DNA of 64,000 nucleotides, taken from positions 6,009-70,008 of the forward strand of contig JAHDSQ010000031.1 in the NCBI GenBank assembly GCA_018432615.1, written 5' to 3'. Shown here piece by piece: positions 41,085-61,431 of the stretch; positions within the stretch are counted from its first letter, which is position 1, and each line of letters opens with the position of its first letter. Source of the stretch: Clostridia bacterium. Lineage in GTDB: Bacteria; Bacillota; Peptococcia; DRI-13; SM3-B62. Made by a program: the position numbers and the translations under genes. The notes beneath the pieces were generated by a model. It was not told the DNA's origin, ran no database searches, and saw nothing but the letters and a program-made list of their open reading frames with translations.

Positions 41085-43556
41085 ATGCGGCAACAAATTT
41101 TGCATCGCAGGCATATCAGCGCAGAGCTTGATAATCTGTTCAGTCATCCGCTGACATTGGCAGTAGCGGCTATGGGATATGGCAAAACCACATCGGCTAA
41201 GGACTATCTGAATGAAAAGGCCGTAAGGTATACATGGTTATCAATCGAAAGCGATGAATCATCCCCGCAGTACATCTGGGACTCTCTGACGAGCCAGCTG
41301 GTCAAAGACAAGCCGGAGCCGGGTAAACAGTTACGCGCGTTAGGGTTTCCGGTTGATGCTCCCCAAAGAGAACGGGTTTTAAAGATGATTGAAGACTTAG
41401 TTTATATGACTAATACCGTATTAGTCATTGATGATTACCATCATGTCCATTCCCCGGAACTTGACAAACTGGTGGAACGATTGGTGCGGATGAAGATTGA
41501 GGGATTTCATATCCTGATTCTCTCCCGGACAGTTCCTGAGATAAATATTTATGAATTAACGCTCAAAGGATATTGTTATCAGGTAAAAAGCCGCGTATTT
41601 GAAGTTGGTGCGGCGGAAATAAAGAGCTATTTCGAAATGTACTCCCATAGAATATCCGATGATACGGCAAAACAGGTTCAGGAGATTTCGGAAGGCTGGG
41701 TGTCCGCTGTGTACCTGATTATGCAGAGATATGCCGAAACAGGCAGAGTGGAACCCGGCGAGAGTATTGAAAAGCTGATTGAAACAGCAGTTATGTCTAG
41801 GTATACGGGCAGGGAAGTATTGATATTAAAATCACTTTCCCTCCTTGAAAACTTTACACCGGCACAAGCAGGCTATGTGACCGGGGAGCGGGAAGCCGGA
41901 AAAATCATTCGCAGATTAAGCGAAGAAAATTCCTTTATTCGGTATGATGAAATAAACGGCGTATATCGGATTCATAATATATTAAATAACTACCTGCGAA
42001 AAATCCTTGCGGAGCAACCGGAGAATATTGAGATAGCAGATTTATATAAGCGTTCCGGTCAGTGGTACATTCAAAACGGTGATACTATTTCCGGTCTGAA
42101 ATATCTCTTAAAGGCAAAGGAATATGACCTAATTTTGGCGGAATTCGAAAAAAGTGCTATCAATATCGTGATAGACAGCAATCCCCAATATATCTTGGAA
42201 ATATTTCAGCAGATACCCATGGAAGTAAAATACCGTCATCCCATCGGTTTGCTTGCCTATATCGGCTTTTATGTGACAAATGTTGATCGAAACAAAGGTG
42301 CCTGCCTTCTTGGGGAAATCGAAAAGCATTATCAAAACGATAATATTTCCGCTGTAGTGAAAAAACGCATTGCGGGAGAGATAGAGCTAATCAGAGCCTA
42401 TATCGCCTTTAATGATGCTGCCTTAATGCGGGAAAGGATGATCAGGGCACATGAGATGTTGGAGGGGCATTCGCTGATTGCCAATAAAGATAAGATTATC
42501 ACCTTCGGCTCGCCCCACTCGGCCTACCTATATTATCGTGAAAAAGGGAGATTCTCGTGGAGTGTGCGGTGCGTGCAAGAGATGTTCCCCTATTATTCGG
42601 AAATGGCCGGGGGTTGTGGTAAAGGATTCGACGATTTGCTGCAGGCGGAATACTATCTGGAGACCGGAGAACTGAAGCAGGCTGGGATTTATGCCCGGAA
42701 AGCCATATACAAGGCTCAAGTTTTGGAACAGGTTGATGTGATTTTATGCGGGCGGTTTGTGCTGGCTAGAATTTCTTTGGCTCGGGGCCAAATGAACGAA
42801 GCCTTAGAGGTTATGGACGATTTGAGCGTGGAAGTTGAGGCTTGCAGTATACCTATACTTAGCAGTGCTTTTGATTTGTGTTCCGGTTATATAGGGGCTG
42901 TAAGCGGAACAGACAACCGGATAGCCAACTGGCTGAAGCTGGGGGATATTGAGCAGAGCGAGGTTTTATACCAGGGGATGGGGTTCAATTATATTGTCTA
43001 CGGAAAATACCTTTTGGTTCAGAAGCAATATATCAAACTTGAGGTACTGTGCGAGGAGATGCGGCAGGTATTTTCCTATTTTAATAACCTGCTGGGCTAT
43101 CTTCATGCCTATATATTAGAGGCTGCCGCCAAATACAACCTTTACGGTCTGAAAGAAGCAAAGCCCGCAATTGCGGAGGCTTTGGATATCGGAAGGGCGG
43201 ACGGGATTATATTCCCTATTGCAGAATACGGCCTTCATATTCTCGAACTCCTGCAAGACCTGCAAACAGATTATGAGGGGGATGAGTATTTAGCCGAGCT
43301 TGTAGCCCAAACGACCCAATATTCCGTTAATCAGAAGCGATTTAAGTTCAGGGGGACAAAAAAGCTTGAACTGACAAAGCGTGAGAAGGAGATACTTATG
43401 CTTGTTACAGATGGTAAAACCAACGGGGAGATTGCTGCAGAGCTTTTTCTGGCGGAGGTTACCGTCAGAAAAAACATCACGGCCATCTACCGGAAATTGG
43501 ATGTCGCCGGCAGGGCAGCGGCGGTTAAAAAGGCCCTTATGCTGAAAATAGTATAA
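41085..43556 (+). CDS. LuxR/MalT-like STAND ATPase transcriptional regulator (intact)
   Basis: P-loop AAMGYGKTTSAK, Walker B VLVIDDYHH, long TPR-like middle, and C-terminal LuxR HTH LTKREKEILMLVTDGKTNGEIAAELFLAEVTVRKNITAIYRKLDV. Confidence 0.85.
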   Translation: MRQQILHRRHISAELDNLFSHPLTLAVAAMGYGKTTSAKDYLNEKAVRYTWLSIESDESSPQYIWDSLTSQLVKDKPEPGKQLRALGFPVDAPQRERVLKMIEDLVYMTNTVLVIDDYHHVHSPELDKLVERLVRMKIEGFHILILSRTVPEINIYELTLKGYCYQVKSRVFEVGAAEIKSYFEMYSHRISDDTAKQVQEISEGWVSAVYLIMQRYAETGRVEPGESIEKLIETAVMSRYTGREVLILKSLSLLENFTPAQAGYVTGEREAGKIIRRLSEENSFIRYDEINGVYRIHNILNNYLRKILAEQPENIEIADLYKRSGQWYIQNGDTISGLKYLLKAKEYDLILAEFEKSAINIVIDSNPQYILEIFQQIPMEVKYRHPIGLLAYIGFYVTNVDRNKGACLLGEIEKHYQNDNISAVVKKRIAGEIELIRAYIAFNDAALMRERMIRAHEMLEGHSLIANKDKIITFGSPHSAYLYYREKGRFSWSVRCVQEMFPYYSEMAGGCGKGFDDLLQAEYYLETGELKQAGIYARKAIYKAQVLEQVDVILCGRFVLARISLARGQMNEALEVMDDLSVEVEACSIPILSSAFDLCSGYIGAVSGTDNRIANWLKLGDIEQSEVLYQGMGFNYIVYGKYLLVQKQYIKLEVLCEEMRQVFSYFNNLLGYLHAYILEAAAKYNLYGLKEAKPAIAEALDIGRADGIIFPIAEYGLHILELLQDLQTDYEGDEYLAELVAQTTQYSVNQKRFKFRGTKKLELTKREKEILMLVTDGKTNGEIAAELFLAEVTVRKNITAIYRKLDVAGRAAAVKKALMLKIV

Positions 43557-43597
43557 ATTCATAGGAAATATATCGCATGCGATAATATATTTATTTT

Positions 43598-43632
43598 AAA
43601 AACCCTACTATGATGATAGTAGGGTTTTAATC
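43598..43632 (+). terminator. Rho-independent terminator
   Basis: AAAACCCTACTAT..ATAGTAGGGTTTT hairpin after the LuxR stop. It resembles the hairpin at 30375. Confidence 0.7.
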
Positions 43633-43673: not shown

Positions 43674-43907
43674 GTGCCTCGGATTATTGATGTTATACCC
43701 CACGATGATTATACACTGACCATTGAACTCAACAACCATCATAAAGTCGTTTACGATATGAAGACCAGAATCCAATCATCCCGTTTTTGTGAGCTTGCCG
43801 ATATCAATAAATTCAAAGCTCTGCGGGTCGAATACGGGAAGACACTGGTATGGGACGGCTTATGCCAGATTACCATTGATGAGATTTTAAGCAACCTTGA
43901 ACGTTAA
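43674..43907 (+). CDS. DUF2442-family small protein
   Basis: MPRIIDVIPHDDYTLTIELNNHHKVVYDM...RFCELADINKFKALRVEYGKTLVWDG fits the DUF2442 pattern. 77 aa, like its paralogue at 30466. Confidence 0.7.
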   Translation: MPRIIDVIPHDDYTLTIELNNHHKVVYDMKTRIQSSRFCELADINKFKALRVEYGKTLVWDGLCQITIDEILSNLER

Positions 43908-44046: not shown

Positions 44047-44304
44047 ATGAGTGAGATTAGCAGATTCAATAATGATGTCAGAGAAAACAAGGAAATGTTG
44101 GATGCGGTAAAAGAAATAGGCAACGACCTGGGAAAAGTGGTCGCCTATGCAAATTCCAAGGGGTACGCGATTAGTATTGAAGAGCTGGAGGCGCAAATCA
44201 AAGAGGAAGGGGAACTCTCCGAAGAGAATCTCGATAAAGTGGCGGGAGGACTATCTGCCGTTATAACCGGAGTAGCCGACATCACTATGGTATTAGTCCT
44301 CTAA
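44047..44304 (+). CDS. Nif11-like leader RiPP precursor 1 (68-aa leader ending VAGG, 17-aa core LSAVITGVADITMVLVL)
   Basis: The leader pattern MSEISRF..........L...KEIGNDL..VVAYANSKGY.ISIEEL......ELSEENLDKVAGG fits the Nif11-type leader (TIGR03798 as I recall). RBS AAGGAGAG 6 nt upstream. Confidence 0.85.
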   Translation: MSEISRFNNDVRENKEMLDAVKEIGNDLGKVVAYANSKGYAISIEELEAQIKEEGELSEENLDKVAGGLSAVITGVADITMVLVL

Positions 44305-44341
44305 TCACGGTGAGACGGTATCGTACAATCGAGAAAGGAGG

Positions 44342-44647
44342 ATGATGATGATGTCCGAGCTTGAAAGGTTCACTCAAGCACTTCAAGGTGATAAGGAGCT
44401 GGTGGAAGAACTGAAGTCTAGAGGAAACGATCTGGAAGAGATTGTCCGTTTCGCTAATTCCAAAGGATATAATTTTTCACTGCAGGAGTTGGTTACTGCA
44501 GCGGAAGAAAACGAAACCCTGTCCGAGGAGGAACTGGAGAGTGTAGCGGGTGGGTTTTTGACTTGCCTGGCCGGTGTTTCTTTTCAGATAGGAGATGGGA
44601 CCGGTCTTACGATTGCGGCCAAGGCCAAGGCTTTGGCGGTACTGTAA
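44342..44647 (+). CDS. Nif11-like leader RiPP precursor 2 (core FLTCLAGVSFQIGDGTGLTIAAKAKALAVL, 30 aa)
   Basis: The leader ...GNDLEEIVRFANSKGYNFSLQEL...LSEEELESVAGG is paralogous to precursor 1. There are four consecutive ATGs after GGAGG, and the true start is probably 44348 or 44351. Confidence 0.85.
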   Translation: MMMMSELERFTQALQGDKELVEELKSRGNDLEEIVRFANSKGYNFSLQELVTAAEENETLSEEELESVAGGFLTCLAGVSFQIGDGTGLTIAAKAKALAVL

Positions 44648-44679
44648 AAACTATAAAAGCGGGGAAAGGACAGCGAAAT

Positions 44680-44952
44680 ATGGTTATAAAAGAAATTAAG
44701 CGCTTTAATGAAGCTATACGTCACGACGAAGAACTTCAAAACCGGATCAAGGTCATTGGAGCGAATTTGGAAGAGATTGTCCGTTTCGCCAACCAAAAGG
44801 GATTCGATTTCACGGTAGATGATCTTAAAAAAGCACAAGACGGGGATATTGAGTTGTGCGATGAAGAATTAGAGTCTGTAGCGGGCGGAATCGTTGGTGC
44901 AATTGTGGCGCAGACGATAACAGTTGTCGGACTTGCTATAGTTTGCAATTAA
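44680..44952 (+). CDS. Nif11-like leader RiPP precursor 3 (core IVGAIVAQTITVVGLAIVCN, 20 aa)
   Basis: The ORF track starts at 44563 and overlaps precursor 2. The in-frame ATG at 44680 (MVIKEIKRFNEAI...) follows GGAAAGGA and aligns with the other two leaders. The leader ends CDEELESVAGG. Confidence 0.8.
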   Translation: MVIKEIKRFNEAIRHDEELQNRIKVIGANLEEIVRFANQKGFDFTVDDLKKAQDGDIELCDEELESVAGGIVGAIVAQTITVVGLAIVCN

Positions 44953-44973
44953 CAGGGTTACCGGGGGAGGTTA

Positions 44974-46407
44974 ATGGCGTTGAGCAGCTCACTGCTTTAT
45001 CAGGATTATATAAAAGGTACGAGCCCCGACGAATTAAAAATCATTGCCAATATCAAACGCTTTTTTGAGTGTATGACCGGTGATCCGGAGTTTCGTGCCG
45101 AGGTGGAAAGTAATATGTCCGGATGCGGACCGCTCTTGGAGTCAAGGGGCGTTTTTGGTGTAGACCCTACCCAGTTAATGGCGTTGTTTTCCAGGGGATC
45201 ATCGGAAGCCGAGCCTTCGGAGTCTGATTTGCAGGACAAGCCCCAGGGGCTGCTGTGGTACCGCTGGTGCAAGACGCATGAAGAATTGCGCCGGGCATGG
45301 AGAAAGCGCAGTGACGGTACACCCAATAAACGCTTTAATCAGTGGCACCGTCGCCAGGTGAACCGCTGCGGCAGTCAGCTGGGTAATTTAACAAACGAGC
45401 AATTAATCCATGCTACCGTTGTTTTTGAATTAACCCAGGGGTGTTCTCTCCAGTGCCCATTTTGCGGCCTGGCAGCCGAACCGCTAAAAAAGGTGTTTCC
45501 ATATACGAAGGAGAACGCCAGGCTGTGGCGGGAGGTGCTGGATGTGTCCGTTAAGCACCTGGGAGATACGGTAGGTACCGGAGTTTGCTACTGGGCGACT
45601 GATCCGACGGATAATCCGGATTATTTGAAGTTTGTGGCCGATTATGGTCAAAAGACGGGTTTTTACCCCCAGACCACAACCTCCGCACCCCTAAGAAAGC
45701 TTCAATGGACCCAGGACTTACTGGGATTCCGACGGCAACATAATACCTCTGTGGATCGCTTTTCAGTGCTTTCCCTTGATGGTCTGCGCCGTATTCATAA
45801 GACGTTTAGCGCGGAAGAGCTGTTATTTACCCAATTGGTTCTGCAGTATATTGATGTCATGAAAAAGGCCATGGCTCGTTCCGGGCGTAATCGACATAGT
45901 GAGGTTGAGCAAGAAGGGCTTGAGACTTTCAAGGATCATACTATCGCCTGTGTAACCGGTTACCTGATAAATATGGCCAAAGGCACGGTACGGCTAATCA
46001 GTCCGTGTCCTCCTTCGGAGATTGCGCCCCTAGGGTATCTCGTCCATACGGAAGGAAGATTCTCTAATGCCGGGGAGCTGGATGAGTTTATCGCCGAAAC
46101 CATGGAAAATTGTATGCCCGAGCATTGCGGGTCTGAAGATATCTTGTCCTTCCGTTGTGACTTGCAGTACGGGGTGTTGGCTAACGGCTTTCAGCTATCC
46201 AATGAATACAAGTCCCACAAGGTAGAGGGTAAACCCTATCTGATTAAGCTGGGAGGACTTATTTCAGGAGGGGATTTGACGTTTTCGCAAGTACTGGAGG
46301 AGATGTCAAAAGAGAGTGCCGATATCTTAGCGGTGATTACCACCATTCAGAAACTGTTTTCCCAAGGATTATTGGCTGACAAGACGGCTTGCGGCGGGAG
46401 GGTTTAG
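44974..46407 (+). CDS. Radical SAM RiPP maturase (Nif11-class; candidate PoyD-like epimerase)
   Basis: A single CxxxCxxC motif (GCSLQCPFCG; Cys codons at 45442, 45454 and 45463) follows a ~150-aa N-terminal extension. It starts 22 nt after precursor 3. The epimerase assignment is inference. Confidence 0.6.
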   Translation: MALSSSLLYQDYIKGTSPDELKIIANIKRFFECMTGDPEFRAEVESNMSGCGPLLESRGVFGVDPTQLMALFSRGSSEAEPSESDLQDKPQGLLWYRWCKTHEELRRAWRKRSDGTPNKRFNQWHRRQVNRCGSQLGNLTNEQLIHATVVFELTQGCSLQCPFCGLAAEPLKKVFPYTKENARLWREVLDVSVKHLGDTVGTGVCYWATDPTDNPDYLKFVADYGQKTGFYPQTTTSAPLRKLQWTQDLLGFRRQHNTSVDRFSVLSLDGLRRIHKTFSAEELLFTQLVLQYIDVMKKAMARSGRNRHSEVEQEGLETFKDHTIACVTGYLINMAKGTVRLISPCPPSEIAPLGYLVHTEGRFSNAGELDEFIAETMENCMPEHCGSEDILSFRCDLQYGVLANGFQLSNEYKSHKVEGKPYLIKLGGLISGGDLTFSQVLEEMSKESADILAVITTIQKLFSQGLLADKTACGGRV

Positions 46408-46410
46408 GTT

Positions 46411-48387
46411 ATGAGTTTAAATAACAAAACCGTTGCCCTGCCCTTTACGTCTGCGGAGGTGTGCCTGGTAAGTATGCCTTACCATAACCCGCATTTGCCG
46501 TCATTAGCCTTGGGCTTGCTACAGGCGGCCTTAATGGCAGAAGGAATCGAAACGAGAAGCGTTTACGCCAACCTCTTGTTTAACGAGCAGTTAGGACATC
46601 CTCTCTATAACCGGCATCACGTTCCTGATCCCAGGTTGCCTTTGGCAGAGTGGTCTTTTTCACCCCTTGCTTTTCCGGGGTTTGACGCCGATGAGGGAAG
46701 GTTTATCAAAGCGACTTATCCCTTGTTAGGCAGAATAAGACGGCAGACTATAGAAGCCTACCGTGAAGAACTTCGCTTTGTACGCCGCCAAGCGGAAGTA
46801 TTTATTAGTGATCTGGCGGAGAAAATCCTCAGTCTGTCGCCACGCATCGTGGGCTGTACATCAAGTCTGGCCCAGAAAGTGCCTTCCTTGGCCTTGTTGC
46901 GGAAAATCCGTGAGCTTGACCCAAAAGTAGTTACTTTAATGGGAGGTGCGGATTGTGAGACAGTGATGGGTCTTGCGGCTCATCAGCATTTCACCTGGCT
47001 TGACTATATCGTGTCAGGGGAAGGGGAAGATTTAATCGTTCCTTTGGTAAACAGTATCTTCGAGTTCAACCGAGAGGTTCCGCCTGACAGGCTGTCCAAA
47101 GGGGTATTTGCTCCTTGTCACAGGGATAGCGGATACCTTGAGATAAAAGAACAGGGAGAGGACAGCTATCGAGCGGTGGCGGAGTCCTTTGGGAGGCAAC
47201 GTCTCCCGCTCTATCAGGACTATTTTGACACATTGGCGCTACTGCCTACCCTGAGCGGTTTAATCCGGCCAAGCCTGCCTATCCAGGCCTCAAGAGGGTG
47301 CTGGTATGGAAAGTGCAAATTTTGCGGTTTGAATGCCCCGGAAATTCCCTACCGCTCACGCCCGTCTGAAGACGTACTTTCTGAAATGGATGAGCTTAAC
47401 GACCGACACGGTGTGACACATTTTGAGTTTCTGGATAACGTCCTTGCTAAGGGGCATATTGATGATTTATTGCCTAAACTTGCGGATAGGGGAGCCCCTT
47501 ATAAGTTGTTTTATGAAATCCGTTCGGATTTGTCGAAAAAGCAAATTGCATCCCTGCGGGCGGCGGGGGTCGTCATTTGCCAACCCGGGATAGAAAGCCT
47601 GCATAGCGAGGCTTTAAGAGCGATGAAAAAAGGGGTTACAAGCTGGCAGAATATCCAGACGTTGAAATGGTGCCGCCAGTATGGCATCAAGGCTAAATGG
47701 TCTATCATACACGATCTTCCGGGGGATCAGGACCACTGGTACCGGGAGATGGCGGAACTTGTTCCCCTGCTGGCTCATTTAAGCGAGCCCATGGGAATGC
47801 TGGAGGTTCAGTATCAACGCTACAGCCATTATTTTGACCACGCTGATGAGTATGGTCTAAAACTGGAACCCCTGTCATTGGACTCGCTGATTTATCCACT
47901 ATCTGAGGAAGTTATCAAGAATCTTTCCTATACACTGGACGACCGGTTCAGTGCCGGGGTTAGAGATAATCCCGGATTAGCTATATTATTTGCTCGTCCG
48001 GGACTGCGGAATTTGAAGAAGGCTGTTATCCGGTGGATGATGGGGGCTGATAATCGGAACGGGCCCATGTTGAGCATGAAAGTGGCTGACGACAAAATAG
48101 TCATCAGTGATTCCCGTTCTGTGGCTACAGCCTCTTCATTTCAGCTTGACGGAGCCGAAAGGGAGATATATCTTCTGTGTGATGAGGCCAGACCGGAGGA
48201 GCAGGTGAGACGGCTCCTGTTGGATAAGGGATATAACGAGCAGACTGTGGATACAGGTATCCACAGTCTGCTGGAAAAGAAAGTGATGCTTCGGGTTGAC
48301 CGACGCTTACTGGCCTTAGCCTTAGAGGAGCCTGTTTTGGAATATATCTCCCCGGATCAGAACCCTATGGGATGGGTGAGTATCTAG
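46411..48387 (+). CDS. B12-binding-domain radical SAM enzyme (RiPP maturation rSAM, TIGR03975-like; candidate C-methyltransferase)
   Basis: The N-terminus VCLVSMPYHNPHLPSLALGLLQAAL is typical of the cobalamin-binding-domain rSAM group found next to Nif11/NHLP precursors. The cluster motif is RGCWYGKCKFCG (Cx4Cx2C as read; Cys codons at 47299, 47314 and 47323). Confidence 0.7.
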   Translation: MSLNNKTVALPFTSAEVCLVSMPYHNPHLPSLALGLLQAALMAEGIETRSVYANLLFNEQLGHPLYNRHHVPDPRLPLAEWSFSPLAFPGFDADEGRFIKATYPLLGRIRRQTIEAYREELRFVRRQAEVFISDLAEKILSLSPRIVGCTSSLAQKVPSLALLRKIRELDPKVVTLMGGADCETVMGLAAHQHFTWLDYIVSGEGEDLIVPLVNSIFEFNREVPPDRLSKGVFAPCHRDSGYLEIKEQGEDSYRAVAESFGRQRLPLYQDYFDTLALLPTLSGLIRPSLPIQASRGCWYGKCKFCGLNAPEIPYRSRPSEDVLSEMDELNDRHGVTHFEFLDNVLAKGHIDDLLPKLADRGAPYKLFYEIRSDLSKKQIASLRAAGVVICQPGIESLHSEALRAMKKGVTSWQNIQTLKWCRQYGIKAKWSIIHDLPGDQDHWYREMAELVPLLAHLSEPMGMLEVQYQRYSHYFDHADEYGLKLEPLSLDSLIYPLSEEVIKNLSYTLDDRFSAGVRDNPGLAILFARPGLRNLKKAVIRWMMGADNRNGPMLSMKVADDKIVISDSRSVATASSFQLDGAEREIYLLCDEARPEEQVRRLLLDKGYNEQTVDTGIHSLLEKKVMLRVDRRLLALALEEPVLEYISPDQNPMGWVSI

Positions 48388-48407: not shown

Positions 48408-49037
48408 TTAACTGTGCTCATGGATTATTATGCCTTTTAAGAGCATCTGAAAATGGTCCAGGCATTGTTCCTTTAAATCCAAGTCCGGGTAGCGAATGCA
48501 CCATTCGTAAGTAATACCCCTGATGGCCAGAATACAGTGTTTGGCCAGAGTATCAACAGGCAGGTCCTTTTTGAAATCACCTTTTCTAACACCATCCTCC
48601 AGTATCGCGGCAAAGGCTTTGTAGAGTGCCCTGTCATAGCTTAAAGCCGCATCTGTATCTATGGTTTTGGTCAAGTGAGACTTATAGAGCATTTTAATAT
48701 TTTCATAACCGATTGTGTTAACAATGACATCGGCAATTTTCCCTGTCAGGGCCAGGAGAGTATCGGATATTGAAAGGGCAGGATCAAGGGCATCCAGAAA
48801 TGATTGATAATCCATATCCATTTCATTGACATAATCGACCATTAAAAGAGCCGCCAAGGAGTCCTTGGATTTAAAATGCACGTAGAAAGCGCCTTTGGAG
48901 ACACCTGCCGCTTCTACGATGGAGTCAACAGTAACGTTTTCATAGCCGTATTTCAGAAAGAGCGTCCTGGCGGCCGCGAAAATATTCTTTTTTGTTTGTT
49001 CGGCTTGGATTTTTCGCTTATTTATCCCTTTTTTCAT
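48408..49037 (-). CDS. TetR/AcrR-family transcriptional regulator
   Basis: N-terminal HTH IFAAARTLFLKYGYENVTVDSIVEAAGVSKGAFYVHFKSKDSL. Confidence 0.9.
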   Translation of the reverse strand: MKKGINKRKIQAEQTKKNIFAAARTLFLKYGYENVTVDSIVEAAGVSKGAFYVHFKSKDSLAALLMVDYVNEMDMDYQSFLDALDPALSISDTLLALTGKIADVIVNTIGYENIKMLYKSHLTKTIDTDAALSYDRALYKAFAAILEDGVRKGDFKKDLPVDTLAKHCILAIRGITYEWCIRYPDLDLKEQCLDHFQMLLKGIIIHEHS

Positions 49038-49208: not shown

Positions 49209-51473
49209 ATGGGAAACGAGGAAAGAGGTATACGGCGCAAGGTACTGATGATAGCTTTTGGCCTGCTGATTGCGATCATGTCTTTCACGGGTTTTGTCAA
49301 TTATATGACTTTTTCCTCCAGTTATAATCACGCTCTGGTTAATACCTATTCAGTGGCAGGTAATGAGTTTGTCCGGAGTATTGAATATGCGCTGGGTTAC
49401 GGTAAGCCGATTGACAATTACTATGGGATGCAGGACACCCTTAATGAATTACATAGTCTTGTTCCCGAGCTTGAAGATGTTTTTATTGTCTCCCCTCAGG
49501 GTGAGGTTTTGTACGATTTAGACGGTTTTGTCGAAGATAGTCGCTTGCCTGATGAACTCTTGGAGGCGGCGGTTTTCCGGCAAGGATTGATCAAAGAAAA
49601 ACTGAGTTGGCGATTCTTTAAAGAAAAGGCTTATGTCTTCATCGGCATCAGCCATCATTCCTCAGAGCAAAGCACAGCCAATCATGTTGCCAGTCTGATG
49701 TTGGTTTTCCCCAAGAGTACTTTTTTACAAGCCAACAGCCCCTTTGCCAGGAACTTGGGGGCCTGGCTGGCGGGAATTGCGCTAATTGCCCTGGCTTTAT
49801 TGTCCTTCATTTTTTTCAAGACCAAACTGTTTAATAAGGGGACCTTTAGCAAGAAAAGGCTCTTTCTTACTTTAATTATGACTATTGGCTTAGCACAGCT
49901 TTGTTACACCGGCGTAAATTACTCCCTTTTCAAAAACTCCTACACGGATATGGCCTATAAAAGCAGGGATTTTATCCATACCATCGTGACAAGGAATATG
50001 GAAGACGTATACGATAAAGGGCTTAGCCCGGAGAATATTACGGGGCTTGACGAATACCTGGCTTCAATCAAAGAAAGTTTGCCTCAGATTTCCGAAATCG
50101 GTATTGAGCCGGTTCGAGTTACTGTTTCCGGTGATTATGTACACCAGCAGATTTTCAAGGTTCTGTTGGATATGTTGACGGTGCTGGTTATCTCAGTATT
50201 TTTTATGACCGAGCTCGCCTTATTGGCGGTATTAGTTATCATGGCCAGAGGCCCTACCCAGGCCGCCTATCAAAGTATTGGTGCTAATGCCGGACATGGC
50301 TTGGCAAGATCGTTGATTTTTTTCGTTAACCTATGTGCCTGCATGTCCCTGACCTTTGTTCCGATCGTTATGAAAACTCTTTATCAGCCGATTCCGGGAG
50401 TGGCTAAGGATGTGGTTTTAGGTCTGCCGCTTTCGGCGGAAATGCTGGGAGGGATCCTTGCTATTATCCTGGCGGGGTGGGCAATCAATAAACGGGGATG
50501 GCGCTCAATCTTCTATGTTGGGGTTTTGCTCTTAGCGGCAGGGAATATACTGGCAGCGCTCAGTGCGAACGGAATGTTGTTCGTTGTTTCCCGAGGGATA
50601 GCCGGCTTGGGATTAGGACATATTCTGATGGCTATTCGCAGCTTAGTAGTATCACTGCCAGAGCCTAATGCCGCCATTGCGGAATTCAGTGCGGGATCGA
50701 TAGCGGGTTTAAACTGCGGTCTGGTAGTCGGCGGTTTGCTGGCTGACCGAATCGGTTACGCTGCGGTATTTTACATAGCAGCTGCTTTGGCTATAGTCCC
50801 GGTTATTCTTGTCCGACGGTTCATGACTGAACTTGAAATCCGCGAAAGAGAAGGGGAGCACGCCCCCATCCGGGAAAAAGTCAGGGAGTTTATCATAAAC
50901 AAGAAGACACTCTTGTTTCTGGCCTGTATATTTATTCCTTACTTTATCAGTGGAGCATTTCTGGATTACTACTTTCCTTTGTTTGCGTCTGCTCACGGTC
51001 TTTCCCAAAGTGATATCAGTAGGGGCTTTTTACTGAACGGCCTGTTCATTATCTATTTAGGGCCGATTTTGACCAGGTATGTTACCGGGAAACTGGGCAG
51101 TGTCAGGGGGATTATGGCCTCGATGACGATTGTGATAGGCGCCTTGACAACCTTCTTTGTTTGCGGCACTGTGCCCGCCGCCTTGGTGACAATTGCTTTA
51201 TTGGGCATTGCCGAGGGTTTCGGAGTTTCGCTGAAAACCACCTATTTTCTTAATTTGCAGGGAATCAGGGATTTGGAGATTAATCAAGGGATCGCTTATT
51301 TTAGTGGGATGGTTAACTTAAGCAGAATGACAGGGCCGATAATCTATGGGTTAGCTTTATCGTTAGGTGCGAAAACGGGGATAGGTCTTATTTCGCTAAG
51401 TATGTTTGTATTATTACTGGTGTTTATCTTTTCCGTGGGATTGAAGCCAACATACGGAAAAAGTGGGAATTGA
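49209..51473 (+). CDS. MFS transporter with a ~340-aa N-terminal extension (TM, extracytoplasmic domain, TMs)
   Basis: The C-terminal ~400 aa have about 12 hydrophobic segments and MFS-like loops (NKRGWRS, SRGIAGLGLG). The N-terminal part is not recognised. Confidence 0.65.
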   Translation: MGNEERGIRRKVLMIAFGLLIAIMSFTGFVNYMTFSSSYNHALVNTYSVAGNEFVRSIEYALGYGKPIDNYYGMQDTLNELHSLVPELEDVFIVSPQGEVLYDLDGFVEDSRLPDELLEAAVFRQGLIKEKLSWRFFKEKAYVFIGISHHSSEQSTANHVASLMLVFPKSTFLQANSPFARNLGAWLAGIALIALALLSFIFFKTKLFNKGTFSKKRLFLTLIMTIGLAQLCYTGVNYSLFKNSYTDMAYKSRDFIHTIVTRNMEDVYDKGLSPENITGLDEYLASIKESLPQISEIGIEPVRVTVSGDYVHQQIFKVLLDMLTVLVISVFFMTELALLAVLVIMARGPTQAAYQSIGANAGHGLARSLIFFVNLCACMSLTFVPIVMKTLYQPIPGVAKDVVLGLPLSAEMLGGILAIILAGWAINKRGWRSIFYVGVLLLAAGNILAALSANGMLFVVSRGIAGLGLGHILMAIRSLVVSLPEPNAAIAEFSAGSIAGLNCGLVVGGLLADRIGYAAVFYIAAALAIVPVILVRRFMTELEIREREGEHAPIREKVREFIINKKTLLFLACIFIPYFISGAFLDYYFPLFASAHGLSQSDISRGFLLNGLFIIYLGPILTRYVTGKLGSVRGIMASMTIVIGALTTFFVCGTVPAALVTIALLGIAEGFGVSLKTTYFLNLQGIRDLEINQGIAYFSGMVNLSRMTGPIIYGLALSLGAKTGIGLISLSMFVLLLVFIFSVGLKPTYGKSGN

Positions 51474-51483
51474 GGTCGTTGAT

Positions 51484-52629
51484 ATGATGAAAACGAAAAA
51501 AGTCATAATTTTATACCTGCTTTTGTTTATCGGACTGGTAGGGTGTTCTGCCGGGGATTTAGCCACACAAAGGGAAAGGCAGGTGCAGCAAGGTCGCGAT
51601 ATCCTTATCGCAGTTCCTGTTCCGCTGGAGTTTGCTGAGAAAAACACAAAATTTTTACAAGGGGTTGAACTTGCCCTGGAAGACATCAATAGGGAGGGTA
51701 TCAAGGGTAAGAAATTCAAGCTGGAAATCGTGGATGATCAGGCCAATTTTAAGACAGCTGTTGATCTGGCTCAGCGGTTCAGCAAAGAAACCGGCACTCT
51801 CGCAGTCATCGGACATTGGTATTCCGACATTTGCCTGCCCATATCCCAAATATATGAAGAAGCGGAGCTTTTGACTATAGTGCCTACCGTTTCCAATCCG
51901 GAGTTAACGGAAAAAGGGTATGAATACATTTTTCAGAGTATTACCAGTGACAAGAGGATTGCTGAAAAAATGTGCGCCTATGCTAAGAGTAAAGGGTATA
52001 CACGGGTAGTAGTCTACTATGAAGATAGCTCCTACGGAGAGAATCTGGCCAAAGCCCTGGAGGAAGAAGCAAGCCGCAGCGGCCTTGTCGTTGTTGACAG
52101 AAGGTCGGGAGTGGTAACCGGGGAACAGTTCAGAAATGCCTATGACAAATGGACGGCTTTGGAATTCGACTCGGTTATGCTGGCGGTGAACATGCCTGAA
52201 GGGGCAGATTTCATCAGGAACTTGAGACAGATCGATCAGGAGGCCGCCGTTATAGCTGCCGATGGCTTGGATGTGGCCGATTTCATAACTGAGATTGGGG
52301 AGGATGCCGAAGGTGCGGTTATTATGACCACCTATAACCCCAACGATAGCAGGACTAAACTGGAGGGCTTTACCGGAAGATACCGGGCGAAATATCAGGA
52401 AGAGCCGGATATCTGGGCCATTCAGGGATACGAATCATTACAGCTTATCGCCCACGCCCTGGAGGAAACCGATAGTTATTCACCGGCTGTGTTGGCTGAA
52501 TACTTGCGGCAAATGGAGCCGTGGCCGAGTGTTTCCGGAACGATTAATTTTAATCAAAACGGAGAGATTGAAGGACGCAGGATTTACGCTAAAGAAGTAG
52601 TGAACGGTCAATTCCGATATGCCGACTGA
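51484..52629 (+). CDS. Lipoprotein, LivJ/Peripla_BP_6-type ABC substrate-binding protein (no cognate permease in the window)
   Basis: Lipobox LVGCSAG. Blocks ILIAVPVPL, VDDQAN...A, AVIGHWYS and YYEDSSYG are typical of branched-chain amino-acid-type SBPs. The ATG at 51484 is 7 nt after GAGGT; the track start at 51463 overlaps the MFS gene. Confidence 0.7.
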   Translation: MMKTKKVIILYLLLFIGLVGCSAGDLATQRERQVQQGRDILIAVPVPLEFAEKNTKFLQGVELALEDINREGIKGKKFKLEIVDDQANFKTAVDLAQRFSKETGTLAVIGHWYSDICLPISQIYEEAELLTIVPTVSNPELTEKGYEYIFQSITSDKRIAEKMCAYAKSKGYTRVVVYYEDSSYGENLAKALEEEASRSGLVVVDRRSGVVTGEQFRNAYDKWTALEFDSVMLAVNMPEGADFIRNLRQIDQEAAVIAADGLDVADFITEIGEDAEGAVIMTTYNPNDSRTKLEGFTGRYRAKYQEEPDIWAIQGYESLQLIAHALEETDSYSPAVLAEYLRQMEPWPSVSGTINFNQNGEIEGRRIYAKEVVNGQFRYAD

Positions 52630-52656: not shown

Positions 52657-54000
52657 ATGACGGAAAACAAGATTTTCAGAAAAATATCCCTGGATCGGTT
52701 ATCTTCCCCCGAAGAATTGGACCAGCGCCTAACTGTCATTTCACCCACAGGCTGGGTAGCGTTGTTTGCGGTGGGTATCTTAATTTTTGCCACCTTGGTG
52801 TGGGGTGTTTTCGGGAGGATTTCCGATAAGGCAATGGGTAGCGGAATTATTATCTCCGGCGGGGGTATTACCGGTTTGGTTCACCATGCCACCGGTCAGA
52901 TTAGCGATGTCAGCGTCCGTGACGGCGATTATGTCGGCAAGGGTCAGGTGATGGCACGTCTGGAGCAGACCCAGCTTATCGCGGATATTAATAAAAACAG
53001 AGAAGACCTGGCTGCGGTAAAAGCCATTGATTTGGATAGTCTGGAATTGAATGACAGCACGCGCAATTTTAATGTGTATAGCAGGTTTGGGGAGATTTAC
53101 AAGGGTTATCTGACGGCCCAGGCCAATTTGAATACCCAGACAAAGTATTACGAGGCGGAAAAAGCCAAAGCCGAGAACGAACTGGAAAAGGCCGGAATGC
53201 AATACGAGGCTGCTTTGGATAAATACAACAATTATAAAATTTTGTATGAACATGGTGCTGTTTCCAAAGACGAACTGGATGAGGCAGAGCGGGAAATGCT
53301 TAACTCCGAATCTTCCTACAATACCGTGAAGTACCATTTGAATGAACTGCCGCTGGCCCAGCTTAAGGAGGCGGAAACAGCCTTTGAAGCTCAGCGACAG
53401 TTGCTGAAGGACAATATCATCGCTTCTGTGATAGATTTGGAAAACACCATTCAAAAACAGCAAAATGAACTCCTAAGTAATAATGAGATAATAGCCGAGG
53501 TTTCCGGACGGGTCTTGGAAATGCAGGTGCAAAAAGGTGATATTTATCAAGCAGGAGAGGTCGTTTGCACGATAGCGGAAGAAGGTGAGCAAATCGATAC
53601 CCTGGAGGCTGTTATTTATGTACCGGCGGAGAAGGGCAAAAGAATTAGGCCCGGGATGGAAGTAAATATATCCCCGACTACGGTGCAGAAGGAAGAAAGC
53701 GGCTTTATGCTGGGCAACGTGGTAGAGGTTTCCGAGTACCCGGCCAGTGTCCAGGGAATGATGCTGACACTGGGCAATGCGGACTTGGCCAGACAGTTGT
53801 CGGGGAACAGTTCTCCCATCGAGGTCAGGGTAAAATTGATCAGGGACAGCAATACAGTCAGCGGATATAAGTGGTCGACGCCTAAGGGGCCGTCGATTGT
53901 CATAGACGGCGGGACGTTCTGCGCCGGGGAAGTAAAGATTGAGAAAAAACGACCGATCAGTATGGTCATACCTTTTATCAAGAAGCTTTTGCCTATCTGA
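52657..54000 (+). CDS. HlyD-family NHLP/Nif11 bacteriocin-system secretion protein (TIGR03794-like)
   Basis: The N-terminus IFRKISLDRLSSPEELDQRLTVISPTGWVALFAV is the signature of this subfamily as I recall it. It also has a coiled-coil middle and a beta-barrel C-terminus. Confidence 0.8.
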   Translation: MTENKIFRKISLDRLSSPEELDQRLTVISPTGWVALFAVGILIFATLVWGVFGRISDKAMGSGIIISGGGITGLVHHATGQISDVSVRDGDYVGKGQVMARLEQTQLIADINKNREDLAAVKAIDLDSLELNDSTRNFNVYSRFGEIYKGYLTAQANLNTQTKYYEAEKAKAENELEKAGMQYEAALDKYNNYKILYEHGAVSKDELDEAEREMLNSESSYNTVKYHLNELPLAQLKEAETAFEAQRQLLKDNIIASVIDLENTIQKQQNELLSNNEIIAEVSGRVLEMQVQKGDIYQAGEVVCTIAEEGEQIDTLEAVIYVPAEKGKRIRPGMEVNISPTTVQKEESGFMLGNVVEVSEYPASVQGMMLTLGNADLARQLSGNSSPIEVRVKLIRDSNTVSGYKWSTPKGPSIVIDGGTFCAGEVKIEKKRPISMVIPFIKKLLPI

Positions 54001-54052
54001 TAGATGCTAAAAAACCCGAACCAATGTATTGTGCTTTCAAGATTCTGAGGTG

Positions 54053-56218
54053 ATGAGCTTGCAAAGAAAAGGAAAAATGAAAAGGGTTCCCTCCATTTTG
54101 CAGATGGAAGCTGTGGAATGCGGCGCGGCTTCACTGGCAATGATTTTTGCTTATTATAAAAAATATCTGCCTTTAGAGCAGTTGCGTGTGGACTGTGGGG
54201 TCACTCGCGATGGGGTTAAGGCCAACAGTATCTTAAAAGCTGCCCGGAGGTATGGGTTTGTTGCCAAGGGTTTCCGGAAGGAGCCCGAAGGTTTGAGAGA
54301 GATGCCTTTACCGGCTATCATCCATTGGAATTTTAATCACTTCGTGGTCTTGGAAGGATTCGGGAAAGACGGGGTTTACATTAATGATCCGGGCTCCGGA
54401 CCCAGGACTATTGATTACGAAGAGTTTGACATGGCCTTTACCGGCGTGATTCTGACCTTTGAACCGGGGGAAGAATTTCAGCCCAGCGGGACAAAGAATA
54501 GTTTTATCGTTTCCTTGCGGCAGTGGTTGTCCGGTTCCCATACCGCAGTTATTTATCTGGTTCTGATTGGTCTCATTATGGTTATTCCGGGCTTGCTGGT
54601 ACCGGCTTTCAGTAAAATTTTTATCGATGACATCCTACTCGGGGGCAAAGGTGATTGGTTGAAACCTCTGCTGTGGGCCATGGGAGCGGCGGCCATTTTA
54701 CAGGGGGTATTGGTTGCCCTTCAGCAGTATTACCTGCTGAAAATGGAGACCAAAACCGCCATCAGTAATGCCGGGAAATTCTTTTGGCACATCTTCCGTT
54801 TGCCGGTGGAATTTTTTCAGCAGCGTTCAGCCGGAGATGTTTCCAACCGCCTGCAGAGCAACGACCAGGTAGCCGCGTTTTTATCCCGGGAGTTAGCCGA
54901 AACGGCGATAGGTTTTTTGACCATAATATTCTACTTTGTAGTCATGTTGCAGTTCAGCGTTATTTTGGCCTTGATTGCCCTGCTGATTGCCGCTTTGAAT
55001 ATCTGCTACCTCTTTTATTCTTCCAGTAAAATAGAGACCTTAAATGCCAAGCTTTTGCAGGATCAGGGCAAGGTAATGGGTTTTTCCATGTCCGGCTTAT
55101 TTATAATGGAAACTTTGAAAGCTTCCGCCTCAGAGTCGGACTTTTTTGCCAAATGGTCGGGATACCACGCCAAAGAAATCAATTCTCAACAAAAATTGGG
55201 CAAAACAGCGCAGGTGTTGTTACAATTGCCTGATTTTCTGTCGGAGTTTGCTAATGTTATTGTCTTGTTTGTGGGAGGGTTGACGATTATCAGCGGGAAT
55301 CTGACCATCGGCTCCCTGATTGCTTTCCAGGGACTGTTGGGTAGCTTTATGCAGCCGGTTAACGACTTGACACAGATGGGTATGAGGGTGAAAGAAGTCC
55401 AGGGTGATATTAACCGTTTGGAAGACGTTTTCAAGTACAAGTTGGATGAAAATGTTATTCGAGAAACAGAGACTGAGCATGAAGAGGATACTTGTCGGAA
55501 ACTGGAAGGCGACATAGAAATAAAGGATTTGTCTTTTGGCTATAGTCCATGGGATCCGCCCCTGATTGAGAACTTTAGCCTGAGACTCAAATCAGGTTCC
55601 CGGGTGGCCCTGGTGGGCGGATCCGGCAGTGGCAAGAGCACCGTTGCCAAACTAATCAGTGGAATTTATCTTCCCTGGTCGGGGGAAATACTTTTTGATG
55701 GCAAACGCCGGGAGGATTTACCTCGCGAGGTGATAGTCAACTCGATGGCCGTTGTGGATCAGGATATCACCATGTTTGACGGAACCATCAGGGAAAACCT
55801 TACCATGTGGGATGCCACCATCTCGGAATTAGATTTGATCCGGGCAGCCAAAGACGCCTGTATTCATGATGACATTACCTTACGGGACAAGGGGTATGAC
55901 CATAAGGTCAGTGAGGGTGGCAGTAACTTCAGCGGCGGCCAGAGGCAAAGACTGGAGATTGCCCGGGCCCTAACCGGTAATCCCTCCGTTTTGATTCTGG
56001 ATGAAGCAACCAGCGCCCTTGATGTCCATACGGAGAAACTGGTTGATGAGAACATCCGCCGTCGGGGCTGTACCTGTATAATTGTGGCCCATCGCCTGAG
56101 CACTATCCGGGATTGTGATGAAATCATTGTTCTGGAAAAGGGTAAGATTGTGGAACGCGGCACCCATGATCAGTTGAAAAATACCGGGGGGCTATATGCC
56201 CAGCTAATCAGCGCTTAA
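54053..56218 (+). CDS. Bacteriocin export ABC transporter with an N-terminal C39 double-glycine peptidase domain (TIGR03796-like)
   Basis: C39 motifs QMEAVECGAASLAMI (Cys), HWNFNHFVVL (His) and YINDPGSG (Asp). Six TM segments, Walker A GGSGSGKST, signature FSGGQRQR and Walker B LILDEATS. The start is ambiguous (TTG 54029, ATG 54053, ATG 54077). Confidence 0.9.
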   Translation: MSLQRKGKMKRVPSILQMEAVECGAASLAMIFAYYKKYLPLEQLRVDCGVTRDGVKANSILKAARRYGFVAKGFRKEPEGLREMPLPAIIHWNFNHFVVLEGFGKDGVYINDPGSGPRTIDYEEFDMAFTGVILTFEPGEEFQPSGTKNSFIVSLRQWLSGSHTAVIYLVLIGLIMVIPGLLVPAFSKIFIDDILLGGKGDWLKPLLWAMGAAAILQGVLVALQQYYLLKMETKTAISNAGKFFWHIFRLPVEFFQQRSAGDVSNRLQSNDQVAAFLSRELAETAIGFLTIIFYFVVMLQFSVILALIALLIAALNICYLFYSSSKIETLNAKLLQDQGKVMGFSMSGLFIMETLKASASESDFFAKWSGYHAKEINSQQKLGKTAQVLLQLPDFLSEFANVIVLFVGGLTIISGNLTIGSLIAFQGLLGSFMQPVNDLTQMGMRVKEVQGDINRLEDVFKYKLDENVIRETETEHEEDTCRKLEGDIEIKDLSFGYSPWDPPLIENFSLRLKSGSRVALVGGSGSGKSTVAKLISGIYLPWSGEILFDGKRREDLPREVIVNSMAVVDQDITMFDGTIRENLTMWDATISELDLIRAAKDACIHDDITLRDKGYDHKVSEGGSNFSGGQRQRLEIARALTGNPSVLILDEATSALDVHTEKLVDENIRRRGCTCIIVAHRLSTIRDCDEIIVLEKGKIVERGTHDQLKNTGGLYAQLISA

Positions 56219-56251
56219 TTAATCTTAGCAATCGGAAATGAGGTATTTGTT

Positions 56252-60984: not shown

Positions 60985-61020
60985 CGTGTGAAGTTTGAAA
61001 AGCATGTGAACCTATGAAAA
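60985..61020 (+). promoter_or_regulatory. TGTGA direct-repeat motif upstream of precursor 4
   Basis: CGTGTGAAGTTTGAAAAGCATGTGAACCTATGAAAA. The TTGAAA(A)GCATGT part also occurs at 43962..43975, upstream of precursor 1. Confidence 0.3.
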
Positions 61021-61037
61021 AGAAAGGATGGATCGAA

Positions 61038-61394: not shown

Positions 61395-61413
61395 GCAGAG
61401 TAAAGTAAAAAAA

Positions 61414-61431
61414 CATGTGAATCTGTGAAAA
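61414..61431 (+). promoter_or_regulatory. TGTGA direct-repeat motif upstream of precursor 5
   Basis: CATGTGAATCTGTGAAAA. Confidence 0.3.

Follow-up and report, generated by a model that had tools for sequence, protein, structure and literature searches.

A Nif11-leader RiPP operon with a predicted PoyD-family epimerase and PoyB/C-type C-methyltransferase in a Clostridia bacterium

The DNA analysed here (the window) is a stretch of 64,000 nucleotides from a Clostridia bacterium (contig JAHDSQ010000031.1). Between positions 44047 and 48387 it bears five tightly packed open reading frames (ORFs), all on the + strand, in the layout that an earlier note, made from the sequence alone, had described. 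Three of them specify short precursor peptides with Nif11-type leaders, and the other two specify radical S-adenosylmethionine (rSAM) enzymes, one belonging to the PoyD family of peptide epimerases and the other to the PoyB/PoyC type of C-methyltransferases. We put at about 0.72 the probability that this segment is a biosynthetic core for peptides made on ribosomes and modified after translation (RiPPs) that yields D-residue-containing, C-methylated hydrophobic peptides, probably directed at membranes. The genes are as follows.

44047-44304, + strand: precursor A1 (type 1), 85 amino acids; Nif11-type leader ending in LDKVAGG, core LSAVITGVADITMVLVL (17 residues); TIGR03798, 44.6 bits
44342-44647, + strand: precursor A2 (type 2), 101 amino acids; Nif11-type leader ending in LESVAGG, core FLTCLAGVSFQIGDGTGLTIAAKAKALAVL (30 residues); TIGR03798, 54.8 bits
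44680-44952, + strand: precursor A3 (type 3), 90 amino acids; Nif11-type leader ending in LESVAGG, core IVGAIVAQTITVVGLAIVCN (20 residues); TIGR03798, 64.0 bits
44974-46407, + strand: PoyD-family rSAM peptide epimerase, 477 amino acids, with an N-terminal helical leader-like domain, an rSAM core and a predicted C-terminal RiPP recognition element (RRE); TIGR04517, 445 bits
46411-48387, + strand: predicted cobalamin-dependent (class B) rSAM C-methyltransferase of the PoyB/PoyC type, 658 amino acids; TIGR03975, 562.8 bits

All three precursors exceeded the 32.3-bit cutoff of TIGR03798, the model for RiPP precursors with a Nif11-like leader (E = 1e-11, 8e-15 and 1e-17 for A1 to A3, respectively), as well as the 23.8-bit threshold of Pfam Nif11 (26, 37.6 and 48.9 bits). 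Their leaders are helical, are ∼68 residues long, and end at a double-glycine cleavage motif of the ELSxEELxxVAGG type (junctions ELSEENLDKVAGG, LSEEELESVAGG and LCDEELESVAGG), which is the motif given for Nif11-type (N11P) precursors in Table 3 of PMC2887384. No match to the nitrile-hydratase-like leader peptide (NHLP) model TIGR03793 or to NHase was obtained for any of the three at E ≤ 0.01. Proteusins are defined by an NHLP leader (PMC8326336); since the leaders of A1-A3 are of the Nif11 type, these precursors are not strict proteusins, and the term 'proteusin-like' used in the earlier note holds for the enzymology and fails for the class. The residues that follow the GG are exactly those quoted in that note; V, I, L, A, T and G make up 79% of the three cores, and the number of Cys residues is 0, 1 and 1. 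The start of A2 is ambiguous, there being four consecutive ATG codons between 44342 and 44351 (the gene caller on an identical Logan contig, SRR13787012, gave a protein of 98 amino acids), and the ATG of A3 (44680) falls within a longer ORF of 129 codons that starts with TTG. Shine-Dalgarno sequences are good for A1, A2 and the gene for the 477-residue protein, and weaker for A3. A gap of only 21 bp separates A3 from the epimerase gene.

To place the operon in context, related loci (L002-L008 and L011-L019) were fetched from genomes and assemblies and compared by tblastn. Four loci share this trio of precursor types and its order, namely the window, L002, L011 and L012 (Fusibacter ferrireducens), whose epimerases are 76%, 66% and 54% identical (L002, L011 and L012, respectively) to that of the window; partly similar triples occur in L003 and L008. 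Reciprocal best matches among the precursors always paired a type with the same type. The type 1 core has orthologues in L002, L011 and L012 with 53-76% identity; for type 2, identity with both L002 and L011 is 80% in the core and 49-69% in the leader; and some ten related 20-residue cores of type 3 share G3, Q8, T11 and G14. Substitutions between orthologous cores are conservative V/I/L/A swaps. The earlier note had seen in the three precursors a small combinatorial family with near-identical leaders. Neither point held: the leaders are 47%, 37% and 49% identical in pairwise comparisons, and each precursor type has orthologues elsewhere whose cores are conserved at least as well as the leaders. 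Because three or more other genomes keep the precursor types as sets of orthologues, A1-A3 are, as judged by sequence comparison, a fixed and conserved three-peptide set rather than a combinatorial library, and joint production and use of the three peptides is probable. Such conservation of the cores runs counter to what combinatorial N11P families of the prochlorosin type show, in which hypervariable cores follow constant leaders.

The central proposal of the earlier note, that a PoyD-type epimerase and a PoyB/C-type B12-dependent rSAM C-methyltransferase act on these precursors, was supported by the family assignments of both enzymes, which lie far above curated NCBIfam cutoffs, by the single-cluster architecture, invariant extra cysteines and predicted C-terminal RRE of the first, and by the gene order, which recurs in at least 11 other loci. 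The 477-residue protein falls within TIGR04517 ('radical SAM family RiPP maturation amino acid epimerase', rSAM_PoyD) with 445 bits against a cutoff of 325, and not within a non-epimerase rSAM family, which the note had named as a refuting outcome; the alignment is full-length, residues 24-467 covering positions 1-445 of the 446 in the profile, and the next-best family, PqqE, reached 16 bits. As the note had remarked, the protein has a single CX3CX2C motif (C157/C161/C164) and a long N-terminal extension (∼145 residues). No SPASM/twitch or Fer4 domain was found in it with Pfam. Among 20 homologues (33-76% identity), C157, C161, C164, C205 (in CYWATDP) and C326 (in TIAC[VL]TGYL) are invariant, and C345 is nearly so. 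In the PoyD family the hydrogen-atom donor is a strictly conserved Cys outside the cluster, Cys372 in PoyD; the conservation pattern makes C205, C326 or C345 the candidate donor of the 477-residue enzyme. Its features agree with the way proteusin epimerases are described in the literature (the comparison with PoyD being by description), namely as enzymes with only one cluster, a conserved cysteine that acts as H-donor and an RRE at the C-terminus (PMC8326336; PMC13012085).

An AlphaFold2 model of the 477-residue protein (pLDDT 83.6) comprises the N-terminal helical domain, the rSAM core and, at residues 398-463, three strands plus three helices. Foldseek searches with this model returned no full-length match, only generic rSAM cores, such as those of BtrN and SuiB, and RRE domains, all weak (E 0.01-0.9). 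The RRE matches (ThcOx, PbtF, TbiB1 and SuiB) cover ∼80-90 columns with rmsd 2.7-3.8 and E 0.03-0.9, a close fit, and TM on the target was 0.57-0.66 for stand-alone RRE proteins. A C-terminal RRE is thus predicted at residues 398-463, the matches being placed there by secondary structure. A sequence search of solved structures returned nothing for the epimerase. About 300 homologues were found, the closest named ones in Peptostreptococcaceae, Desulfosporosinus, Fusibacter, Sporomusa and Desulfotomaculaceae, and the name given to these homologues by NCBI is already that of TIGR04517.

A separate observation concerns the N-terminal helical domain of the epimerase (residues ∼22-87; window 44974-45400), which shows similarity to the Nif11 leaders of the enzyme's own precursors. 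Profile comparison with hhalign gave P = 2e-4 over 62 columns and a score of 24.9, while 200 column shuffles used as a control scored 9.8 ± 2.2, with a maximum of 16.7. Cyanobacterial homologues of the epimerase show weak Pfam matches to the leader-type families Frankia_peptide and NHase_alpha at the same position. This similarity suggests that a leader-like domain is present inside the epimerase.

The 658-residue protein matched TIGR03975 ('RiPP maturation radical SAM C-methyltransferase') with 562.8 bits, the cutoff being 281.85, and again over the full length (residues 17-638 on positions 1-606 of 606); the next family was BchE, with 58 bits. Pfam Radical_SAM was recognized at residues 293-451 (59.8 bits). 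Orthologues 58-78% identical lie directly after the epimerase gene in L002-L008. The only solved structure detected by sequence was 9ccb_A, a weak and partial match (E = 3e-06). The motif TVVG in type 3 cores had raised the possibility of a cyclopropylglycine synthase like TvgB; this candidate was discarded, TvgB being a non-B12 rSAM-SPASM enzyme and the 658-residue protein a full-length member of TIGR03975. Overall, the pattern is not one of chance, because the leaders match TIGR03798 with E values of 1e-11 to 1e-17 and the two enzymes match their families with E values of 3e-133 and 9e-169, respectively.

The order precursor(s), epimerase, methyltransferase is kept in L002-L008, L011, L012, L014 and L016-L019, usually together with a solute-binding protein (SBP) and an exporter of the NHLP type. 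Gene content, family membership, conserved adjacency and synteny, and purifying selection on the cores are what the analysis shows. The SBP, the exporter, an extracytoplasmic function (ECF) sigma factor with a small partner, and a DUF7005 protein recur around the precursor/epimerase/methyltransferase operon, so the functional unit is a conserved cluster of ∼17 kb (44.0-60.9 kb) in which the epimerase is the constant maturase and the methyltransferase a frequent partner. The description of the five genes as a 'mini-system' in the earlier note was therefore too narrow; its statement that lanthionine synthetases and cyclodehydratases are absent stood, neither having been found among the ORFs scanned between 34.8 and 64 kb. 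A third rSAM/SPASM enzyme and the DUF7005 protein lie 11-14 kb downstream of the core operon. The genes and elements that flank the core are listed below.

41085-43556, + strand: MalT/LuxR-type regulator (STAND ATPase, TPR, GerE helix-turn-helix); Pfam AAA_22, TPR_MalT and GerE, with a partial match to NCBIfam MalT
43571-43628, + strand: 14-bp palindrome TATCGCATGCGATA (43571-43584; exact match) followed by a hairpin (43599-43628; terminator scan)
48408-49037, - strand: TetR-family regulator; Pfam TetR_N
49209-51473, + strand: major facilitator superfamily (MFS) transporter with an N-terminal membrane-anchored domain of ∼350 residues; Pfam MFS_1 at residues 370-677
51463-52629, + strand: lipoprotein SBP (Peripla_BP_6/LivJ-like), lipobox LVGC; NCBIfam branched-chain amino-acid SBP subfamily, E = 2e-34
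52657-54000, + strand: HlyD-type secretion adaptor of NHLP bacteriocin systems; TIGR03794, 354 bits (cutoff 156)
54029-56218, + strand: NHLP-family export ATP-binding cassette (ABC) transporter with N-terminal C39 peptidase; TIGR03796, 1088.9 bits (cutoff 853); Peptidase_C39 recorded on an identical contig
56252-58933, + strand: second NHLP export ABC permease/ATPase; TIGR03797, 921 bits (cutoff 709)
58970-59515, + strand: ECF-type sigma factor; TIGR02937, 118 bits
59531-59773, + strand: GG-tailed partner of the ECF sigma factor, 80 amino acids, ending in DELADDELDMVAGG plus the hydrophilic tail VNPNALPNKKDKP; uncharacterised family
59894-60928, + strand: DUF7005 protein; PF22541, 388 bits; invariant HExxH (R..HE..HY) and DE.IADY

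The C39-bearing ABC subunit is predicted to cleave the precursors at the double glycine and to export the product. Its partner, the second ABC subunit, is extended at the N-terminus by ∼200 residues (1-205; 56252-56860), and the sole signal there is a sub-threshold one for cNMP_binding (E = 0.09). A stand-alone cNMP-binding protein adjoins DUF7005 in the Nostoc locus L015. SBP homologues (35-36% identical) were found between the methyltransferase and HlyD genes in L002, L006 and L016-L019, and make this protein a candidate immunity protein or sensor of the hydrophobic product; an SBP as a constant member is unusual for NHLP/N11P export systems. DUF7005, also present in L006-L008 and in L015 (2876-4072), an NHLP-epimerase-LanM locus of the landornamide-like type, is by its motifs a candidate HExxH metallopeptidase. 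Two genes are less regular companions. The TetR-family regulator has a homologue otherwise only in L006 and is not a constant member, and no homologue of the MFS fusion was found in the related loci, so that it is confined to the window; a part in self-protection by efflux is possible for the latter, speculatively.

Regulatory genes are found on both sides of the core. An orthologue of the MalT/LuxR regulator, 78% identical, lies directly upstream of the precursors in L002, and a MalT-like winged-helix/TPR protein is present in L013; the MalT/LuxR protein of the window is likely to be the pathway regulator. In L002 and L011, the palindrome TATCGCATGCGATA and a hairpin with the same loop (ATGAT[GT]AT) recur ∼100 nucleotides upstream of the first precursor. 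In the window, they are separated from A1 by an inserted DUF2442 gene (43674-43907). Together they are a candidate operator plus a terminator or attenuator. When the regions upstream of the first precursor were compared in 13 loci, the only shared elements were a ribosome binding site and an inconsistent GAAAGGGGG element. No Rfam family, such as a cobalamin or SAM riboswitch, reached the threshold anywhere in the window.

Homologues of the ECF sigma factor, 58-62% identical, lie just upstream of the precursors in L005-L008. Pairs of a sigma factor and a GG-tailed partner were found in L005 (445-1275), L006 (1238-2095), L007 (6490-7310), L008 (6117-6945) and L013 (5544-6475), the partner always following the sigma gene. 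The partners are 80-107 residues long and helical in their N-terminal part; they share the motif DEEYKELLxLAQLL and, in the C-terminal part, a double glycine (DELEDDELDMVAGG). All 87 homologues are annotated as 'hypothetical', and 84 of them bear the GG motif (DDELDMVAGG) plus a Lys-rich tail; the hydrophilic tail after the GG is conserved as [VL]N[LP]N..L.[DE]EK.KK. Searches for this partner gave no Pfam match, no meaningful fold match in the PDB for an anti-sigma domain (best E = 2.2) and no match in the literature. It may be an anti-sigma factor, or else a pro-peptide or pro-pheromone processed by the C39 exporter of the same cluster.

When the leaders were used as a profile query, 257 relatives were retrieved, and core statistics were derived from the 58 unique cores of the close leader subfamily. 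Their median length is 14 residues (range 6-30); 76% of the residues are V/I/L/A/G/T, 39% are beta-branched, and none of the cores has more than one Cys. The recurrent families are (N)GGIL[IV]AW, GFLAWW, FVIGAIVA, TNVLQAALVC, VVLGEAKAVLVG and VS[IL][IV]LGKV[IV]VI. The precursor with the core GGILIAW was found in 405 blocks of the assembly collection, in the same operon, beside a seven-transmembrane histidine kinase and a LuxR-type response regulator. Related operons with the same leader, epimerase and methyltransferase (P0160 and its relatives; L016-L019) bear cores of 6-8 residues, for instance GGILIAW, NGGILVAW and GFLAWW. At L014 (2865-10896), in one complete genome, two pairs of epimerase-like and B12-rSAM genes accompany three Nif11 precursors and adjoin a transposase gene; the cores there have Asn/Gly-rich N-terminal halves and hydrophobic tails (e.g. 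ANQNGNRNQDTGRITPVVGGGQGVNAVVSVF).

The following scheme for the chemistry on the A1-A3 cores, the sites modified and the bioactivity is drawn by analogy from what is known of PoyD/OspD and PoyB/PoyC. The leaders of the three paralogous precursors would deliver the C-terminal cores of 17, 30 and 20 residues to both rSAM enzymes. The PoyD-family epimerase would use a 5'-deoxyadenosyl radical to remove the C-alpha hydrogen of selected residues, and a conserved Cys would then donate a hydrogen from the opposite face, converting L into D. The cobalamin-dependent enzyme would methylate unactivated carbons of side chains, the most plausible target being C-beta of Val, Ile or Thr. Finally, the exporter (52657-58933; HlyD, the C39-peptidase ABC subunit and the second ABC subunit) would cleave after Gly-Gly and secrete short, protease-resistant, highly lipophilic peptides with D-residues and added methyl groups. 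Candidates for self-protection would be the conserved lipoprotein SBP and, in the window, also the MFS pump. PoyD and PoyC act on Val, Ile, Thr and Ala, the residue types that dominate the cores of the window (PMC11285071; PMC9060474). The most likely activity, though this is speculative, would be a membrane-directed, bacteriocin-like antagonism, because of the extreme hydrophobicity, the three-peptide set and the conserved lipoprotein that possibly serves immunity. By analogy, a gramicidin-like pore is conceivable for the cores of 17-20 residues, as dimers or oligomers only; such a model cannot hold for the relatives with cores of 6-12 residues, because these are too short to span a membrane. 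The parity of Gly positions, viewed as a sign of D/L alternation, gave no consistent signal (Gly 7, 13, 15 and 17 of A2 are all odd; Gly 3 and 14 of type 3 are of opposite parity).

Several findings weigh against a pathway to epimerised, C-methylated, membrane-directed peptides. Regarding the enzymes, the epimerase is only ∼33-38% identical to cyanobacterial family members (∼34% to the Nostoc one), and members of the Bacillota clade are known from genes alone. The Pfam B12-binding match of the 658-residue protein (residues 127-209) is weak, 21.7 bits being below the gathering score of 32.1; B12-binding followed by Radical_SAM is the expected domain order, and the L014 and L016 orthologues likewise match weakly. 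Its cluster motif is a non-canonical Cx4Cx2C (CWYGKCKFC; C297, C302 and C305), conserved with three invariant Cys in all eight Bacillota methyltransferase sequences; on the favourable side, a Rhodospirillaceae (alphaproteobacterial) homologue has the Cx7Cx2C of PoyC, a spacing that is reported to be found in that enzyme alone (PMC11285071). In Sporomusa (L013), a precursor and an epimerase occur and no methyltransferase, so methylation is not obligatory in the family. B12-rSAM enzymes, moreover, are able to catalyse reactions besides methylation. One or both of the rSAM enzymes might perform some other chemistry on the cores (another B12-rSAM reaction, a crosslink, or C-alpha chemistry besides net epimerisation), an explanation favoured by the 'subfamily' rather than equivalog level of both NCBIfam models, the distance of the Bacillota clade from characterised members (33-38% identity), the shortened cluster motif and the failure of sequence searches to return a closely related solved structure (nothing for the epimerase, the weak partial 9ccb_A for the methyltransferase). 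It is nevertheless very improbable given the full-length family alignments, with scores 1.4 to 2 times the cutoffs, the retention of the catalytic-type conserved cysteines and the dominance in the cores of Val, Ile, Thr and Ala, the residue types that PoyD and PoyC modify (PMC11285071; PMC9060474). It is hardly credible that A1-A3 are unmodified hydrophobic bacteriocins of class II type with a GG leader, the rSAM enzymes serving other substrates. A2 and A3 do show weak, sub-threshold matches to class IIb bacteriocin and double-glycine leader models, and other precursors exist in the window (two of Nif11 type and one of NHLP type at 61-62.3 kb); but those downstream precursors have an rSAM/SPASM enzyme of their own, whose gene overlaps the NHLP gene by 4 bp, only 21 bp separate A3 from the epimerase gene, more than 10 loci of different families retain the precursors next to the epimerase, and L005-L007 and similar loci hold no other candidate substrate.

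The bioactivity part of the interpretation is weakened by the relatives whose cores, with 6-12 residues, are too short for a membrane-spanning structure, and regulators crowd the cluster (MalT/LuxR and ECF sigma in the window, a histidine kinase and a response regulator in L016-L019) in a way that would suit signalling equally well. The main rival keeps the same biosynthesis and assigns the products a different role, that of secreted signalling peptides (modified pheromones) sensed by the SBP and/or by the adjacent regulators to control gene expression. Related cores of 6-10 residues ((N)GGIL[IV]AW, GFLAWW, FVIGAIVA, TNVLQAALVC) are of pheromone size, one of them being that found in 405 blocks; regulators always flank the clusters, be it MalT/LuxR (window and L002), the ECF sigma factor with its GG-tailed partner, or the seven-transmembrane histidine kinase with the LuxR-type regulator (L016-L019); a ligand-binding SBP is a constant member; and C39 ABC exporters also mature the competence and bacteriocin-inducing pheromones of Gram-positive bacteria by cleaving GG leaders. 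However, the cores of the window, with 17-30 residues and organized as a conserved three-peptide set, are more typical of multi-peptide bacteriocins, and bacteriocin clusters normally also have pathway-specific regulators and immunity lipoproteins. We consider a signalling role unlikely, though worth keeping in view, and favour membrane-directed, epimerised and C-methylated peptides. A bolder version, which we consider quite doubtful, would make the three peptide types ribosomal counterparts of gramicidin, that is, short, D/L-patterned, C-beta-methylated beta-helices that jointly form a multi-component channel, possibly with leader recognition through the Nif11-like domain of the epimerase and with autoregulation through the GG-motif ECF partner processed by the C39 exporter.

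The cluster is most likely a scaled-down relative of the polytheonamide (proteusin) pathway rather than a novel type of system. It extends known biology, since curated hidden Markov models already recognise every part, and NCBI auto-annotation already covers all of them; it is no conceptual surprise, and it is worth expressing. A literature search, with most subscription journals outside its coverage, returned no characterised cluster in which a PoyD-type epimerase and a PoyC-type methyltransferase are joined with a Nif11 leader on cores this short, and nothing specific for the TIGRFAM accessions of the families, for gramicidin-like RiPPs, for DUF7005 or for anti-sigma factors with double-glycine motifs. 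If the proposed chemistry is true, this would be the simplest natural platform so far for introducing D-residues plus C-methyl groups into gene-encoded peptides; with two enzymes, a 68-residue leader and cores down to 6-20 residues, it should be far easier to engineer than the polytheonamide system, with its seven enzymes and 49 residues. It would also reveal a widespread family of ultra-hydrophobic modified peptides in anaerobic Firmicutes (Peptococcaceae, Desulfosporosinus, Sporomusa and Fusibacter), with a possible role in antagonism or signalling. A three-peptide set that is fixed across genera suggests cooperative action, which would be new for RiPPs of the epimerase type.

The rest of the window contains other features. 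A second RiPP module, at 61014-63823, comprises two near-identical Nif11-type precursors of 126 residues, with the core VALATVAAAATLFSIGDSMTGGHVRRAVSSGVRRAARRIFRGW and a variant of it, and an NHLP-type precursor of 131 residues with the core AASFRPDVIMMYAVRPPSDFKKGGGTGSPAWRVALEKFRK, whose gene overlaps by 4 bp that of a 515-residue rSAM/SPASM enzyme. The latter has C-terminal TPR repeats, and its best matches, TIGR03913 and TIGR04103, are both far below the cutoff. This module presumably uses the same NHLP exporter. A defence island at 96-4752 contains an AlwI-type restriction endonuclease and a 968-residue protein of a TOTE conflict system (AEP primase, helicase and PLD domains). Between 9374 and 34520 lie genes for several surface proteins of very large size, with SLH, PKD, fibronectin-III, cadherin-like and RCC1-repeat domains, and also SigI-type sigma factor genes; this content would fit a Gram-positive (Bacillota) host that has an S-layer.

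Among known systems, those of polytheonamide and aeronamide (PoyA/PoyD/PoyB/PoyC; AerA/AerD/AerC) likewise act on a ribosomal precursor with a PoyD-type epimerase plus a B12-dependent rSAM C-methyltransferase from a family with non-canonical cluster spacing, and their cores are also rich in Val, Ile, Ala, Thr and Gly. They differ in that their leader is nitrile-hydratase-like whereas that of the window is of the Nif11 type, in that their cores have ∼48-49 residues rather than 17-30 (6-30 in the relatives), and in having one precursor where the window, in an uncultured anaerobic Bacillota host, has three conserved ones. The cluster of the window is also without the Asn N-methyltransferase, the dehydratase and the hydroxylase, and while the aeronamide leader is removed by a dedicated serine protease (PMC9060474), a C39 ABC exporter is predicted to do so here. 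The cyanobacterial systems of OspA/OspD (landornamide), AvpD and PlpD similarly place a PoyD-family epimerase beside long-leader precursors, and the landornamide-like Nostoc locus L015 shares DUF7005 with the window; OspA, however, is an NHLP-type precursor (PMC12537861), and in the cyanobacterial clusters the epimerase is paired with LanM, arginase or splicease instead of a B12 C-methyltransferase. The plp cluster contains both NHLP- and Nif11-type precursors, so that the co-occurrence of a PoyD-type epimerase with Nif11 had already been noted (PMC11002830).

The TIGR03798 leader family and the exporter composed of HlyD, ABC-peptidase and ABC subunits (TIGR03794/03796/03797) were defined by Haft, Basu and Mitchell in 2010 (PMC2887384), and the leaders, the cleavage motif and the export trio of the window conform exactly to that description, all above cutoff. 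Characterised N11P members, though, are lanthipeptides (prochlorosins) or azole peptides with hypervariable cores rich in Cys, Ser and Thr, whereas the cores of the window are Cys-poor, hydrophobic and conserved between genomes, and rSAM enzymes are their maturases. A further parallel is offered by the epipeptides (YydF/EpeX; epimerase YydG/EpeE), short hydrophobic peptides of Firmicutes in which Val or Ile is epimerised by an rSAM enzyme and which perturb membranes (PMC8326336); EpeE is unrelated in sequence to the proteusin epimerases and has an auxiliary twitch [4Fe-4S] cluster (PMC8326336; PMC13012085). In contrast, the 477-residue enzyme has no detected SPASM/twitch domain and is assigned to TIGR04517, and the epipeptide system has neither a methyltransferase nor a Nif11 leader. 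Gramicidin A, finally, is a D/L-alternating 15-mer channel of non-ribosomal (peptide synthetase) origin, with a Trp-rich C-terminus and capped termini. The likeness to it is one of analogy only: should epimerisation alternate, the 17-20-residue cores of Val, Ala, Leu, Ile and Gly would have the size and composition for a D/L peptide of beta-helical form. The conserved Gly 3 and Gly 14 of the type 3 cores are of opposite parity.

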